A stretch of DNA of 64,000 bases. It comes from an uncultured Gemmatimonadales bacterium (lineage in GTDB: Bacteria > Gemmatimonadota > Gemmatimonadetes > Gemmatimonadales > GWC2-71-9). Positions 45,399 through 52,386 of this stretch are shown here, one piece after another (the stretch's first letter is position 1; every line of letters starts with the position of its first letter). Made by a program: the position numbers and the translations under genes. The stretch spans positions 32,001 to 96,000 of the forward strand of contig CAWJMT010000036.1 in NCBI GenBank assembly GCA_963844035.1, given 5' to 3'. The notes beneath the pieces are model-generated. The model saw only the letters and a program-made list of their open reading frames with translations, had not been told where the DNA came from and did not search any database.

Positions 45399-45892
45399 GG
45401 ACGGCGCCGCTCGCGCTCGTGCGTCCCACGCGCGCGCCGGTGGTACGTCCCGCATCGCTCGTGGACGTGCCGCAGCTCGAAACGCTGATCGGGCCCTACG
45501 TGGCGACGGGGGACCTGCTACCGCGCAGCAACTACGACCTGTGCCGCCACATCAAGGAGTATGTGGTCGCTCCGGGCCCGGACGGACGCATCGTCGGATG
45601 CGGCTCCCTCAAGGTCTACTCGCAGGCGCTCGGCGAAATCGCAGGGCTCGCCGTGCATCCCGACGCACAGGGGAGCGGCGTGGGCCGCGCCATCATGGAG
45701 GCGCTGATCGCCGAGGCGCGGGCCAGCGGGCTTGCCGAGGTGCTGGCGCTCACGCGCAAGCCGGCATTTTTCTTCAAGCTCGGCTTCCTGCCGTCGGAAA
45801 AGGAGCACTTCCCATTGAAGGTGTGGGCCGACTGCACCCGGTGTCCGCGGCAGAACTGCTGTGACGAGGTGGCGGTCGTCCTGAAGGTCTAG
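45395..45892 (+). CDS. argA: Short GNAT-type N-acetylglutamate synthase
   Basis: [35 protein letters not shown]; last gene of the arg operon. Confidence 0.8.
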
Positions 45893-46890
45893 CTGTCTTT
45901 CCGCTGCTCCCGGCCGAATCGGTGCGGGGGGTCAACGTCCCGGGGGGACACATAGACCTGGTCCCCCTTCTGCAACGCCAACTCCACGTACCGTTCCCGC
46001 GCCACTTCCACCTCGATCGTCTGGCCGCCGTCCAACCCGTCGAGCTCGACTCGCACCACTGCCCCGAACGGGCGCAGGTGGCGCACGGTCGCCAGCACGG
46101 CATGGGCGCCCTGAGCGGTCCGCGCCAATTCGACGTCGTGTGGCCGCAGCAGCCGTCCGTGGAACAGATTCACGTCGCCGAGGAAACGATACACGAACTC
46201 CGACGCGGGATGCTCGTACACCTCCTCCGGCGTGCCGACTTGCTCGATCCGTCCCTGGTTCATTACCACGATGCGATCCGCCACCTCGAGCGCCTCTTCC
46301 TGGTCGTGGGTGACGAACACGCTGGTGACGTGAATCTCGTCGTGCAGCCGCCGCAGCCAGCGCCGCAGCTCCTTGCGGACCTTCGCATCGAGCGAGCCGA
46401 ACGGCTCATCGAGCAACAGCACGTTGGGCTCCACGGCGAGCGCTCGGGCGAGCGCGACCCGCTGGCGCTGCCCGCCGGACAGCTCGGACGGATCGCGGCC
46501 GGCCACGCCGTCCAGCTGCACCAGCCGCAACAGATCGTGGGCCCGGCGCCGGATCTCGGCTTCGGTGGGGCGCGTGCTGGGTGGCCGCACGCGCAGCCCG
46601 AACGCGACGTTTTCGAGCACGCTCATGTGGCGGAACAGGGCGTAGTGCTGAAACACGAAGCCGACGCGCCGGTCGCGCACGTGGCGCTCGGTGGCATCCT
46701 CGCCGTGGAAATGGATCGTTCCCGAATCCGGGGCCTCCAGTCCGGCGATGATCCGGAGCAGGGTGGTCTTACCGGAGCCCGACGGGCCCAGCAGAGCGAC
46801 CAGCTCCCCCGCCGGAATTTCGAGGCTCACGCCGTTGAGCGCCTGTGAGCCGACAAACACCTTGCTGACGTCGCGAACCTCGATACTCAT
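45889..46890 (-). CDS. cysA: Sulfate ABC transporter ATP-binding protein
   Basis: [40 protein letters not shown]-like tail. Confidence 0.93.
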
Positions 46891-47789
46891 ACGGCCGCCT
46901 CCTGCTCGTGCGCCGTGTCCGCTCGCCGGCGGAGCTCAAACCACTCCACCAGGCTTCGGGCCACCAGCGTCACAATCGCGAGCAACGCGAGCAGTGACGC
47001 GACCGCGAACGCCGCCGCGAGGTGGTACTCGTTATAGAGAATCTCCACCTGTAAGGGCAAGGTGTTGGTGACCCCCCGGATATGTCCCGACACGACCGAC
47101 ACGGCGCCGAATTCGCCCATGGCGCGCGCATTACAGACGATCACGCCGTACAGCAGGCCCCACTTGATGCTGGGAATCGTAATACGGCGGAAGGTCTGCC
47201 ACCCGCTCGCGCCCAGCACCATCGCCGCCTCCTCCTCCTCCGTGCCCTGCTCCTGCATCAGCGGAATCAGCTCGCGCGCCACGAACGGGACGGTCACGAA
47301 GATCGTGGCGAGCACGATGCCCGGCACGGCGAAGACGATCCCGATCTCGTGGTCGGCGAGCCAGGGGCCGAACCATCCTTGCGCGCCGAACAACAGCACG
47401 AACATCATCCCCGCGATCACGGGCGAGACCGTGAAGGGCACGTCGATCAGCGTCACCAGGAGCTGCTTCCCGGGAAACGTGAACTTCGCGATCGACCACG
47501 CGGCCGCCACGCCGAAGACCAGGTTTAGCGGCACCGCGATCGCCGCCGTCAGCAGCGTGAGCCGGACCGCTGCGAGCGCATCGGGATCGCGCAGCGCCGC
47601 GGCATAGACCCCGACCCCTTTCCTGAATGCCTCGGTCAGCACCACGATCAGCGGGAGGGCAAGGAACAGCGCGAGAAACGCGAGCGCCGTCCCCATCAGG
47701 ATCCAGCGGACCCACGCGGGCTCGGCGGCCGGTCCCGCCCTTCGCGTTCGCGGCGGAGCACTCGTGCGCATCGCGAGGGCTTGAGACAT
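46887..47789 (-). CDS. cysW: Sulfate ABC transporter permease
   Basis: [28 protein letters not shown]. Confidence 0.93.
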
Positions 47790-47791
47790 CG

Positions 47792-48628
47792 CTAGTCCGT
47801 GGCCCCCGTCAGCCGCTTGCGGCTCGAGAGCACATTGATGGCGACGAGCAGCGCGAACGAGATGACCAGCAGCACCACGGCGATCGCCGATGCGCCGGCA
47901 TAGTCATACTGCTCGAGCTTCGTCATGATCAACAGCGGAGCGATTTCCGTGCGCATCGGCATGTTGCCGGAGATGAATACCACCGAGCCGTATTCGCCGA
48001 CCGCCCGCGCAAAGGCGAGGGCAAACCCCGTAATGAGCGCCGGCCGGATGGCGGGCAGCAGCACGCGACGGAACACATCCCAGCGGGTCGCGCCGAGACT
48101 CGCCGCCGCTTCTTCCACGTCCGCCTCGAGGTCCTCGAGTACGGGCTGCAGAGTGCGGATCACGAACGGCAACCCGATGAAGGTCAACGCCACGACGATG
48201 CCGAGCGGCGTGAAGGCGACCTTGATTCCGAGCGGGGCGAGCCACGACCCGAGCCAGCCATTGGGGCCATACAGGGTGGTGAGCGCGATCCCTGCGACCG
48301 CGGTCGGAAGCGCGAACGGCAGGTCCACCAGCGCGTCTACCAGGCGCCGTCCCGGGAACGGGTACCGCACCAGCACCCAGGCCACCACCAATCCGAACAC
48401 CGCACTAATGACGGCCGCTGTCAGCGATGCGAGCAGGCTCAATCGGTACGAGGCGAGCACGCGCGGGGTTGTGACTGCGTCCCACAGACCGCCCCAGCCC
48501 AGGCCCGCGCTCTTTACGAAGATGGTGGACAGCGGGATCAGCACGACAAGTCCGAGGTACGTCACCGTGAACCCGAGTGACAGGCCGAAACCCGGGAGCA
48601 CCGACGCCTGCCTCCGGAGCACGCTCAC
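47792..48628 (-). CDS. cysT: Sulfate ABC transporter permease
   Basis: [34 protein letters not shown]. Confidence 0.93.
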
Positions 48629-49647
48629 GGCTTCGCGACCCGGGCCTGATAGATCTGGTCGAACAACCCCCCGTCCGCGAAGTGCTTTGCTTGAACTTTG
48701 CTCCAGTCGCCGAATACCTCGGCTACTGTGAAGAGCGCGATCTTGGGAAACTGCCCGGCGAATTTGGCCGCGACGGCATCGAGGCGGGGCCGGTAGTAGT
48801 TCTTGGCCGCGATCTCCTGTCCGGCGTCTGTGTAGAGGTACTCGAGATAGGCTTGGGCGACGGCCAGGGTGCCGTGCTTCTTCGCGACCTTCTCGACCAC
48901 CGCAACCGGTGGCTCGGCAAGAACGGTGATCGACGGCATCACAATCTCGACCTTTCCCGATCCTAGCTCACGCACCGCCAACAGGGCCTCGTTCTCCCAC
49001 GCGATCAGGACGTCTCCGATGCCGCGCTCCACGAAGGTGGTCGTCGCACCCCGCGCACCACCGTCCAGCACCGGGACGTTGCCGTAAAGGCTGGTCACGA
49101 ACGCGCGCGCCTTGGCTTCGTCGCCCCCGGGACGTCGCAGCGCGTAGCCCCAGGCGGCCAGGTAGTTCCACCGCGCGCCCCCCGACGTCTTCGGGTTCGG
49201 AGTCACCACGGAAATTCCCGGGCGCACCAGATCGTCCCAGTCCCGGATGTGTTTGGGGTTGCCTTTGCGGACGAGCAAAACGATGGTCGATGTGTACGGC
49301 GTACTGTTGTGCGGAAGCCGCGATTGCCAGTCGGGCGGGATCAGGCCGCTCCGCGCGCTGATCTGGTCGATGTCGCCTGCCAGCGCGAGCGTCACCACAT
49401 CTGCGCCGAGTCCGTCGATTACGGCGCGCGCTTGCGATCCCGAGCCCCCATGGGATTGGCGGATCGTGACGTCCTGACCGGTCTTCTCCTTCCAATAGCG
49501 GACGAACGCCGCGTTGTACGACTGGTACAGCTCACGCGTTGGATCGTACGACACGTTGAGCAGCGTGACGGGCTTTTGGGCTGGCGCGGGCGTGATCGCG
49601 GAAACCGCGAGCGCGACCAGCAATGGGAGCGTCATATGTCGAGTCAT
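48625..49647 (-). CDS. sbp: Sulfate-binding periplasmic protein
   Basis: [45 protein letters not shown]. Confidence 0.95.
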
Positions 49648-49657
49648 GTATGCTCCC

Positions 49658-51010
49658 TCAAAACGCCTGTTGGATGCGGACGACGAAGAAATTCTCATTG
49701 GTGCGATTGCCGGTCGCGGCCCCAGCGGCGAAGCGCGTCCGTTCGTAGTTCACCGCGAAGTGCACCGCGGGCGCGAGGTGCCACTTGATGCCTGCCCCCC
49801 ACGCCTTCGCGCTGGTCACGGAATTCCCCACGGCCGCAAAGATGGGAAACGCGTCCGCGTCCGGAAGCAACTCACTGTAGCGGGCGCCGAGCTCCAGAGC
49901 CCCCCAATTCCGTTTCTTGGGATCGAACGGTCGCTTCGGGGTGACCGTAGCGAACGAGGCTTTCTCGCCGGTGACAAACCACGAGGCGGCCACCTGCCAG
50001 CCGCGACTCGTCAGGCGGCTGCCGGCGGTCCCGCGCGTGACATCCTGCTCAGATATGGAGTATTCGCCGAGTACACCGATCGGGCCACCGTACCAATACG
50101 CCTGCGGCGCGTAACGGATACGGCGTCCGTTCGCGACCGTGCTGTCGCGGTAGCGGAACATCGGCTGCTGGCCGGGCGTCACGTATGTCGGCAACGCGCT
50201 GGCCGCGAGTGTACCGCGCTCGATCCCGGTGCTGGCGGCAATCCCCACTCCCAGGCCACCCACTTTGGCGAACACGCGCGCCTCGAAATCCTTGTCGTTC
50301 GTCAGGTCCGCATCCCCGTTCCCCAGATCCGGTACGCCGTTGAAGACCCCGACGGCGTACGACAAGTGCCCTCCCGCGAGATCGCCGACCGCCTGCAGAC
50401 CGACGTCGCGGTTCGGCACCAGGTTGGTCGGCAGTCCGCGCTCGACGAACCGGATGTCCGTCGCCGACTGCAGACGCTCGAGACCGAGCGGCGGCTTCGT
50501 CTTGCCGGCGCGCAGCCCGAACTGTGCGGCAGGCCGGAAGTCCAGGTAGGCGTCGAACAGCACCACCCGGCCCTGCCCGAAATCGGGCGTCAGCCGCAGC
50601 GTGAAGTACTTCCACACCGTGGCGTCGAGGACTGGGCGAGCGCGCCGCAGGCCCAGGGTGGTGTTGCCGAGCGTCGCTGGGGCTTCGCCGGGGAAAGAGC
50701 GCCCATCGGCCTGGATGTAGGCGCGAAACTTGAGCTGATACGCACCGTCTGCCGACTTGATGAGGAACCCCTCCTTTCCCGCCGCTACGCGGGGTTGCTG
50801 CTTCGCCGCCGCGGCAACGCTGTCCTGCTTGAGCTCCAGGAGACGCGCGAGAATGCGCACCTTCTGGTCGAGCTGCTCCAGTCGTTCCCCGACGCTCGGT
50901 TGTGAGTCGCGCAGCGCGGCCGTGTCCTGCTGCGCCGCGCCCGATTGCGCCGCACCAGCCAACCCCAGGATGCTGATCACCAATGCCACCGACCAATGAG
51001 CCCTGTACAT
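49658..51010 (-). CDS. OprO/OprP-family anion-selective porin heading the sulfate operon
   Basis: Signal peptide, coiled coil, LRRAR, FDAY, K.PLGLERL, PNRDVG, C-terminal Phe; GAGGAG RBS at 51022-51027. Confidence 0.85.
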
Positions 51011-51049
51011 GGAATCGCTCGCTCCTCGTCCATTGAGATGAACCCGCAC

Positions 51050-51080
51050 AAAAAACCCGGTCACGTTTGGGGTGGCCGGG
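51050..51080 (-). terminator. Intrinsic terminator (attenuator) in the sulfate-operon leader
   Basis: mRNA CCCGGCCAC-CCCAAAC-GUGACCGGG-UUUUUU (8 of 9 pairs). Confidence 0.82.
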
Positions 51081-51121
51081 CCTGGGATCAGCTCGATTGG
51101 CGGAGAGGCTTGAGCGATTCC

Positions 51122-51214
51122 TCACATCGACAATGCGCGTACCATGGCGCCCGTCCAACCCTGAGGCTGGCGGGGACAACAACACATGGGACAACAGCGC
51201 AGCGCGATGATCAT
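51122..51214 (-). CDS. Cys-rich leader peptide MIIALRCCPMCCCPRQPQGWTGAMVRALSM (30 aa)
   Basis: Manually translated; five Cys, all TGT; lies between the promoter and the terminator. Confidence 0.82.
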   Translation of the reverse strand: MIIALRCCPMCCCPRQPQGWTGAMVRALSM

Positions 51215-51224
51215 GAGGCGGTAC

Positions 51225-51253
51225 AAGCTAGAGTCCTCCCTTGGGCAAGTCAA
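51225..51253 (-). promoter_or_regulatory. Sigma70 promoter TTGACT-17-TAGCTT for the leader/sulfate operon
   Basis: Hexamers with an exact 17-bp spacer; -10 ends 10 nt before the leader ATG. Confidence 0.7.
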
Positions 51254-51306: not shown

Positions 51307-52386
51307 ATGACCAGCCCAGCGTTCGGCCGCTTCTTCCTCCCCGGTCCCACCGATGTCCATCCCGATGTGCTTGCGGCCATGGAGCGGCCCATGATCGGGC
51401 ACCGCTCGAGCGCGATGGAGCAGCTCATGGGCGGCATGGCGGCGCCGCTTGGCCGGCTGTTCCGCACGTCTCGTCCGGTGCTCGTCGGTACCGCCTCGGC
51501 AACGGGGTTCATGGAGATGGCCGTCCGCAACGGCGTGGCGCGCCGCGCCCTCTCCCTCGTGAACGGCGCGTTCAGCGAGCGATTCGCCGACATGGTCGGC
51601 GCTTCTGGGAAGGAGTGCATCCGGCTCGAGGTGCCGCTCGGGAGCGCCGTGGAGCCTGACCTGCTGCGGGACGCGTTGCGCCGCACGCCGGTCGACGCCG
51701 TCACGCTCGTACACTCGGAGACCTCGACGGGCGTGCTGCAGGACGTCGCGGCGCTCGCCGCCGTGGTTCGAGAGTTCGACAACGTGCTCCTGCTTGTGGA
51801 CGCGGTCACATCGCTTGCCGGCTCCCCGGTCGAGCACGATCGCTGGGGCCTGGACTTCACGTTCACCGGCTCGCAAAAGGCGCTCGCCCTCCCGCCCGGC
51901 CTGGCGCTCGGCGTGGCCTCCGAGCGGATGCTCGAGCGGGCGAAAACCCTGCACGGGCGGGGCCTGTATTTCGACCTGGTGAGCTTCGAAGAAGCGACGC
52001 GGAAATCGCAGCCCACCAACACTCCCGCTCTCTCACTGTTTTACGCGCTCGAGGCGCAGCTTGCCCGCATCGAGCGGGAAGGCGGCGTCGAGGCCCGCTG
52101 GCAACGCCACGACGCGATGCGCCGGCGGGTGGAGGCGTGGAGCGAGCCGCACGGCGTCCGCTATGTCCCCCCCGAAGGGCGACGCAGCTGGACCGTGTCG
52201 TGCCTCCAGGTGCCCGCAGGGAAGAAATCGCAGGAGATCGTTGGCGCGCTGCAAAAGAAGGGCTGGACCATCGGCGGCGGGTACGGGGCCTTGAAAGACA
52301 AGACGATCCGCATCGGCCACATGGGGGATCACACGGTCGCGGCGCTCGACGAGCTGCTGGCCTTGGTCGCGCAGACGCTTGTATGA
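51307..52386 (+). CDS. Class V PLP aminotransferase (alanine-glyoxylate/serine-pyruvate family)
   Basis: PGPT, GHRS, HSETSTG, VDAVTS, GSQKAL, RIGHMG. Confidence 0.9.
   Translation: MTSPAFGRFFLPGPTDVHPDVLAAMERPMIGHRSSAMEQLMGGMAAPLGRLFRTSRPVLVGTASATGFMEMAVRNGVARRALSLVNGAFSERFADMVGASGKECIRLEVPLGSAVEPDLLRDALRRTPVDAVTLVHSETSTGVLQDVAALAAVVREFDNVLLLVDAVTSLAGSPVEHDRWGLDFTFTGSQKALALPPGLALGVASERMLERAKTLHGRGLYFDLVSFEEATRKSQPTNTPALSLFYALEAQLARIEREGGVEARWQRHDAMRRRVEAWSEPHGVRYVPPEGRRSWTVSCLQVPAGKKSQEIVGALQKKGWTIGGGYGALKDKTIRIGHMGDHTVAALDELLALVAQTLV

Follow-up and report, generated by a model that had tools for sequence, protein, structure and literature searches.

Organization of the locus

The window analysed in this work is a stretch of 64,000 nt from an uncultured Gemmatimonadales bacterium. 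A short leader region on its minus strand precedes an operon for an outer-membrane porin and a sulfate ABC transporter, with the following features.

51307..52386, plus strand: class V aminotransferase gene, divergent (annotation)
51248..51253, minus strand: -35 box TTGACT, read from the sequence; TTGACA in the 12 relatives
51225..51230, minus strand: -10 box TAGCTT, separated from the -35 box by a 17-nt spacer; matches at only 3/6 positions
near 51218, minus strand: predicted transcription start, about 4 nt before the leader ATG
51122..51214, minus strand: leader ORF of 30 codons (MIIALRCCPMCCCPRQPQGWTGAMVRALSM, then stop), near-leaderless, with no Shine-Dalgarno sequence in front
51176..51196, minus strand: regulatory codons Cys7, Cys8, Met10 and Cys11-13, every Cys being TGT
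51165..51174, minus strand: segment 1, CCCGCCAGCC, 5' arm of the protector, starting directly past the last Cys codon
51174-51150, minus strand: predicted protector hairpin CCCG-CCAGCC / GGTTGG-A-CGGG, which would hide segment 2
51150..51161, minus strand: segment 2, GGGTTGGACGGG, which can form the protector with segment 1 or the antiterminator with the 5' arm of the terminator
51105..51123, minus strand: stop-codon hairpin GAGG (51123-51120) / CCTC (51108-51105), inner stem of the antiterminator loop
51069..51082, minus strand: segment 3, terminator 5' arm GGCCCGGCCACCCC, its core invariant at 13 loci
51050..51064, minus strand: segment 4, GTGACCGGG and a T6 tract, 3' half of the intrinsic terminator
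51011..51027, minus strand: porin Shine-Dalgarno sequence GAGGAG (51027-51022) and spacer, read from the sequence
49658..51010, minus strand: outer-membrane porin of the OprO/OprP family, 450 aa, no Cys (PF07396, Porin_O_P)
48625..49647 (ORF opens at 49698), minus strand: sbp, sulfate-binding protein (NCBIfam)
47792..48628, minus strand: cysT permease (NCBIfam)
46887..47789, minus strand: cysW permease (NCBIfam)
45889..46890, minus strand: cysA ATPase (NCBIfam)

Several elements of this layout had been proposed in a first-pass annotation of the DNA, and they were confirmed. The promoter TTGACT-17-TAGCTT is present at 51253-51225 and the intrinsic terminator at 51080-51050, though a simple promoter/terminator scanner called neither, the promoter because its -10 box matches only 3/6 positions and the terminator because of a C.A mismatch. 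The near-leaderless 30-codon ORF with five Cys codons, all TGT, lies at 51214-51122, and the gene order porin-sbp-cysT-cysW-cysA is supported by Pfam for the porin and by NCBIfam for sbp to cysA. Segment 2 starts 14 nt past the last Cys codon, and 10 of its 12 positions (51161-51150) pair with CCCGGCCACCCC (51080-51069) in the terminator 5' arm, as had been claimed. The protector hairpin was overlooked at that time; it is predicted to mask segment 2 and would be opened by a stalled ribosome.

The leader ATG at 51214 lies 10 nt past the -10 box, and the leader peptide has no match in Pfam or NCBIfam. The conserved core of the ORF is the CCC triplet (51184-51176). The preference for TGT, noted earlier against the surrounding genes, is unusual for the whole genome, in which long high-GC3 ORFs use TGT 656 times vs 2951 for TGC (656/3607 Cys codons). 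TGT is decoded by a GCA anticodon through wobble. ARAGORN gave two matches for tRNA-Cys in the genome, both with anticodon GCA, so the leader codons would be read by wobble.

The terminator consists of CCCGGCCAC (51080-51072) and GTGACCGGG (51064-51056), forming 8 pairs and one C.A mismatch with a predicted hairpin energy of -14.4 kcal/mol, followed by T6 at 51055-51050; from this tract to the porin ATG (51010) there are only 39 nt. Since the upstream gene is divergent and no minus-strand gene ends upstream, it is not an ordinary end-of-gene terminator and can only stop transcripts begun in the intergenic region. The five proteins of the operon together contain a single Cys in 1701 codons, which fits expression under sulfur shortage. 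The OprO/P family is named for phosphate-selective porins, and the gene context suggests a sulfate porin here.

Conservation in Gemmatimonadales

The same anatomy was found at 13 Gemmatimonadales loci, the window and 12 others, all of them before sulfur transporters. Searches with the porin or Sbp protein led to five of the 12, and a pattern containing no Cys codon, ATG or promoter led to the other seven. The porin search yielded six loci, with the element in 4/4 from Gemmatimonadota, an analogue in a myxobacterium (L021) and none at the Pseudomonadota locus. The Sbp search added L015 as a carrier, while L012, L013, L014 and L016 from the same search showed no element within the stretch examined. 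The pattern, built from segments 2 and 3 only, added five genomes and two metagenome contigs. Across the phylum it matched 53 of 401 genomes, and 8 of the 30 loci fetched were real; the other 22 had no T tract and were rejected. The metagenome scan was too loose (2 real among 120 loci), and a loose Cys pattern run on three genomes gave noise.

At 13/13 loci, and despite indels, the first ATG shares its reading frame with three or more Cys codons in a row, at a distance of 21, 24 or 30 nt. A TTGAC box is located 36-39 nt 5' of this ATG at 12 of the 13 loci and 49 nt in L197, and the ATG follows the -10 box by 7-10 nt at 12/13, the start sites being predicted from sequence. TGT accounts for 50 of the 59 Cys codons in the 13 leaders, and at 10/13 loci segment 2 follows the last Cys at the same spacing as in the window. 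Because the element is conserved at 12 other loci, its ATG is in frame at all 13 and the family HMM matches the genome once, it is beyond chance. The first-pass annotation had pointed to the regions upstream of homologous operons, and these do hold the Cys run, the frame, the antiterminator segment and the terminator. In five of the 13 leaders (window 51187, L019, L197, L202 and L125) an ATG stands immediately 5' of a Cys codon, and it could be a second start or add sensitivity to Met.

The genes that follow are porin-sbp-cysTWA at two loci, sbp-cysTWA at one, porin-TauE at three and a TauE-like gene directly at seven, TauE being identified by Pfam for L018 and by visible sequence likeness at the other loci. 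The element is patchy in the order. The porin occurs in 22 of 301 genomes, and one of the 21 porin loci outside the window has a window-type element; at 19 of these 21, two of them truncated, no leader was found within 1.1 kb. In another family of the order, L039:3163-2975 on the minus strand (G154) has a different short ORF with seven Cys codons and a strong hairpin with a weak U tract before porin-sbp. In L012 and L013, a gene that we take to be Rrf2-like and AT-rich palindromes occupy the place of the leader before porin-sbp-cysTWA, and this gene is a candidate for alternative control in related genera.

The residues GWT(D) recur in 11 of the 13 leader peptides. In L015 and L125 segment 2 is read in another frame, and its wobble positions are invariant; with the frame shifted and no synonymous change, segment 2 is kept at the RNA level. 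Rfam gave no known RNA family for the window (one chance match, E 3.7). Nine loci gave one tRNA only, with no known RNA family and no T-box or SAM riboswitch match.

A separate motif, CTGACCGGA-N4-CCGGARG, was observed shortly before sulfate-porin genes in Gemmatimonadota and at one Pseudomonadota locus, and is absent from the window. Its sites are L013:6452, L019:4934, L020:4906, L022:4743, L027:2919, L030:1266, L037:1267 and L038:1534. In L013, L020 and L022 it is preceded by a small ORF, presumably YezD/DUF2292-like. Rfam gave no match on the four motif loci that were scanned.

Alternative pairings and covariation

The predicted duplex energies at the 13 loci range from -9.6 to -16.6 kcal/mol for the 1:2 protector and from -13.5 to -15.8 kcal/mol for the 2:3 antiterminator. 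In the alignment, 97% of the cells are paired for the terminator, 98% for the stop-codon hairpin, 96% for the antiterminator and 81% for the protector in a fixed register, the protector register shifting from locus to locus. Of the two inner stems named earlier as extensions of the antiterminator, GAGG/CCUC is the conserved stop-codon hairpin, whereas the alignment does not preserve the register of UCGAU/AUCGA. As to the covarying helices expected earlier, the pairings are conserved and covariation within the family is weak. No compensatory pair occurs in the antiterminator, where 9 of the 12 pairs never vary, and the compensatory events are one G-C to A-U change in the stop hairpin (L195/L196) and one change in the protector.

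Segment 2 is invariant, as is an A.G position that does not pair. In the terminator the 5' arm does not vary either, while the 3' arm drifts and reaches a C.A mismatch in the window and in L017. A fixed 5' arm opposite a variable 3' arm is expected of a doubly paired strand. Together with the constancy of segment 2 at the RNA level, the fixed arm is an indirect sign, read from the alignment, that favours the 2:3 helix.

Another pairing brings in control of translation. Window positions 51121-51112 can pair without mismatch over 10 bp with 51020-51011, which lies between the porin Shine-Dalgarno sequence and ATG. The Cys leader could thereby act mainly on translation of the first gene, as in mycobacteria, by pairing with the ribosome-binding region, with the terminator secondary or leaky; the predicted near-leaderless start also recalls the mycobacterial leaders in the available text of Canestrari et al. 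(2020, 10.1101/834739). We consider this very unlikely. The complement is 10 bp in the window only and 5-7 bp at the other loci with a (crudely) assigned start, and 13/13 loci have a terminator with a U tract, at widely differing distances from the first gene. The 10-bp complement could add translational control to attenuation in the window genome.

Ribosome-masked folding

When the full-length RNA was folded at equilibrium, the terminator won in every ribosome state (0.98-1.0 in the window). The switch must therefore be kinetic and co-transcriptional; trp attenuation likewise depends on kinetics. The discriminating test was equilibrium folding of RNA cut just before the terminator 3' arm, with the ribosome footprint masked. 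In the window, the predicted probability of the antiterminator was 0.75 when the A site held the last Cys codon, 0.07 when it held the first Cys of the triplet, and 0.00 without a ribosome or with the ribosome at the stop codon. The earlier idea that a stalled ribosome frees the antiterminator is supported by the masked folding on the last Cys codon, but only before the terminator 3' arm exists. In this model the switch stays closed when the ribosome stalls at Cys7-8.

As a control, each of 20 leaders (13 from Gemmatimonadales and 7 from Myxococcota, described below) was shuffled 25 times, giving 500 shuffles. The gain in sequestration of the 5' arm (last Cys minus stop) exceeded 0.3 in 13/20 real leaders vs 33/500 shuffles. 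All 25 of their own shuffles were beaten by 11 of the 13 Gemmatimonadales leaders and by three of the seven from Myxococcota. L017 and L195 failed the test with a 9-nt footprint. The result depends on the footprint, since arm sequestration in the window with the last Cys was 0.50, 0.86 and 0.87 at edges of 6, 9 and 12 nt.

Analogous leaders in the same genome and in Myxococcota

The same genome carries a second Cys leader at G000 C4:328198-328395 (L255:1114-1316), plus strand, with the 33-codon ORF MRLCCNAIGCCCPSQGSGRDCGAQSGGHRTQDR, in which the Cys codons are arranged as CC and CCC. It has a promoter TTGACA-17-TAGCGT, a long antiterminator of its own (GGGGAGCGGGC with GCCCGAUCCCC) and a terminator of its own, and is followed by cysH, a cysG-like gene and sulfite reductase (sir). 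Its sequence is unrelated to the window element, and in the HMM searches it scores only E 0.32. At G000 C4:300688, minus strand, a Leu-rich leader, MTPLFVVNLLLGLLLLGLIPWQEIRGARDATMSR, and a terminator precede genes that read from sequence as leuA- and ilvB-like; this is a candidate for a classical Leu attenuator. In the folding model used above, the antiterminator of both leaders re-forms with the ribosome at the stop codon. A genome-wide leader/terminator scan gave mostly chance matches: those on C9, C19 and C31 were rejected, and the scan missed the leader before cysH.

Thirty porin loci were fetched from 201 Myxococcota genomes, and the seven best carry an analogous element with TTGACA, 3-4 consecutive Cys codons, GGTGGGC and a GCCCAC terminator arm; sbp-cysT is present at six of these seven. 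At 7/7 the ATG and the Cys run share one frame, the distances over both groups being 21, 24, 27 or 30 nt. The element is absent from the other 23 porin loci, 20 without an adjacent sbp and three beside sbp. Of 251 Myxococcales genomes searched with a pattern, 41 matched; the reversed control gave 7 matches. At 23 of the 30 loci fetched from it there are a promoter, an in-frame ATG and a terminator, none of which is part of the pattern, and 20 of these 23 precede a porin or sbp; six of the 30 were chance matches. The two sets overlap, and related genomes in them are not independent. The U-tracts of the Myxococcales elements are interrupted and the -10 boxes weak. Citreicoccus inhibens M34 (L021), a strain in culture, carries a counterpart.

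Neither the Gemmatimonadales nor the Myxococcales HMM picks up the other family, and the two families were therefore not counted as covariation; by sequence they are analogues or very old relatives. The three families, including the leader before cysH, cannot be aligned and have only the layout and the Cys run in common.

In L233-L235, the Myxococcales Cys leader and terminator stand before the gene of a solute-binding protein of non-sulfur type, and L234 has a further TTGACA downstream; the leader is possibly an orphan left after loss of the sulfate operon. These loci would also suit a different reading, that the leader region makes a small transcript (an sRNA or a Cys-rich metal or redox peptide) ending at a constitutive terminator, while the operon has its own promoter or depends on readthrough at a fixed rate. 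The dominance of the terminator in all full-length folds and the recurrence of GWT(D) in 11/13 peptides could be taken in the same sense. We regard such a small transcript as highly improbable. GWT is conserved at the RNA level, as the frame shift in L015 and L125 and the lack of synonymous change indicate; only 39 nt lie between the T tract and the porin ATG; the invariant 5' arm and segment 2 are given no reason; and the leader stays with sulfur transporters through gene rearrangements.

Less probable still is an RNA switch that binds a protein or ligand (SAM, a sulfur metabolite or an antiterminator protein), the ORF being incidental. Segment 2 and the non-paired A.G position, both invariant, could mark a binding site, but Rfam gave no match, the Cys run and its frame are conserved at 20/20 loci, and three unalignable families share only a layout and a Cys run. 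Neither of these readings explains the conservation of frame together with the doubly constrained arm, and attenuation by Cys codons is preferred.

Comparison with known systems

In trpL and hisL, a short leader with cognate codons is combined with a 1:2 protector, a 2:3 antiterminator and a 3:4 intrinsic terminator. The window element is similar in its cognate-codon leader, protector, antiterminator, terminator and stalled-ribosome spacing. The short leader is enriched in Cys (5 Cys in 30 codons, in frame at 13/13 loci), an intrinsic terminator lies between leader and first gene (97% of cells paired), and an exclusive antiterminator uses the terminator 5' arm (96%). The protector is placed accordingly in masked folding, where 11/13 leaders beat their shuffles in a footprint-dependent equilibrium model of truncated RNA, and the downstream genes, sbp-cysTWA or a TauE-family transporter, supply the sensed amino acid. 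The classical mechanism is summarised, for E. coli trpL and Salmonella hisL, in the available text of 10.1101/834739. Unlike trpL and hisL, the window element is proposed to sense Cys and to govern the import of a precursor, sulfate, instead of an operon for biosynthesis; its ORF is near-leaderless, segment 2 is located within the ORF, far ahead of its stop codon, and the hosts are Gemmatimonadota and Myxococcota.

Cys T-box and S-box riboswitches of Firmicutes also control sulfur genes through a terminator and antiterminator, and do so without leader translation. The window element is alike in having a terminator and antiterminator before sulfur genes and differs in its leader ORF and in the lack of an Rfam match.

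The nearest precedent for a terminator-type Cys attenuator, as far as the available text goes, is uORFC-8-2 before cysS in Rhodobacterales, which combines a uORF with a U-run and an intrinsic terminator and was predicted to be ribosome-mediated (Brewer et al., 2021, PMC8632094). According to the same text, it has two tandem Cys at codons 14-15, mostly UGC, and occurs only before cysS in alpha-proteobacteria. The window element shares the uORF, U-run and intrinsic terminator and is, like it, a predicted Cys attenuator. It differs in having 4-5 Cys, mostly UGU (50/59), in preceding sulfur transporters and in its resolved protector and antiterminator. It is not a member of uORFC-8-2 as there described, being set apart by position, host and Cys layout.

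In mycobacteria, polycysteine leaderless sORFs sense Cys-tRNA before sulfur genes of several operons per genome, according to the available text of Canestrari et al. (2020, 10.1101/834739) and Seliverstov et al. (2005, PMC1262725). The tested case reported in these texts, Ms5788A, is translational and acts by occlusion of the Shine-Dalgarno sequence, and no conserved terminators were found. The window element resembles these sORFs in its poly-Cys uORF, predicted to be near-leaderless, before sulfur genes, whereas its family has a conserved intrinsic terminator and antiterminator. In the mycobacterial class the Cys tract pairs with the Shine-Dalgarno sequence and there is no terminator; in the window the pairing near the Shine-Dalgarno sequence bypasses the Cys tract. 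On what these sources describe, the element is outside the mycobacterial translational class.

Proposed mechanism and implications

We conclude, with a probability of roughly 0.85, that the window element is a trp-type transcription attenuator sensing Cys-tRNA, by which the sulfate-uptake genes would be transcribed only when charged tRNA-Cys is scarce. We propose that RNA polymerase starts about 4 nt 5' of the ATG and that a ribosome loads on the nearly leaderless message and translates the leader. With ample Cys-tRNA, the ribosome would pass the TGT run, segment 2, at first under the ribosome, would next be locked into the 1:2 protector, and the 3:4 terminator would form and stop transcription near 51050. 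When Cys-tRNA is low, the ribosome would stall on Cys11-13 and cover segment 1, and segment 2 could pair with the 5' arm of the terminator while the 3' arm is yet to be made, with readthrough into the operon. Two soil metatranscriptomes with a small word share (0.08 and 0.06) contain contigs the size of reads, from near relatives, that cover 51037-51193 and 50940-51146 at a depth of 2-4; these contigs also span the divergent gene, may be DNA and are uninformative on termination.

The first-pass annotation had considered the element undescribed in this lineage. This agrees with the open literature searched (subscription papers and some supplements lay outside its scope), which gave no report of a Cys attenuator for Gemmatimonadota, myxobacteria or sulfate uptake operons, but a terminator-type Cys attenuator had already been predicted before Rhodobacterales cysS, as the available text of PMC8632094 indicates. 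The portions available of PMC11109978, PMC13613805, PMC13096801, PMC13236596, PMC5737381 and PMC545781 contain no such element. According to the available text of 10.1101/834739, Cys attenuation mediated by a uORF had not been reported before. In these sources, Cys attenuation is experimental only as mycobacterial translational control (10.1101/834739), and the terminator type is only predicted (PMC8632094). In the literature searched, no switch of this textbook type was described for sulfate-uptake genes or for Gemmatimonadales.

With about even odds, sulfate uptake and assimilation in some lineages of Gemmatimonadota and Myxococcota are controlled mainly by Cys-codon transcription attenuation with near-leaderless uORFs. 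Attenuation of this kind would have arisen at least three times in unalignable form (the porin/TauE family, the cysH leader and the Myxococcales family), would alternate by lineage with an Rrf2-type repressor, and would fill the missing 'cysteine' slot among the classical attenuators. Such a reading is testable in cultured myxobacteria. As the four-segment design is fully resolved, the window element permits a direct test of terminator-type Cys attenuation, and also of the coupling of a nearly leaderless uORF to RNA polymerase. In addition, the presence of the element points to sulfur import as the likely role of the TauE-family transporters and the OprO/P-family porin in a phylum that is abundant and little studied.
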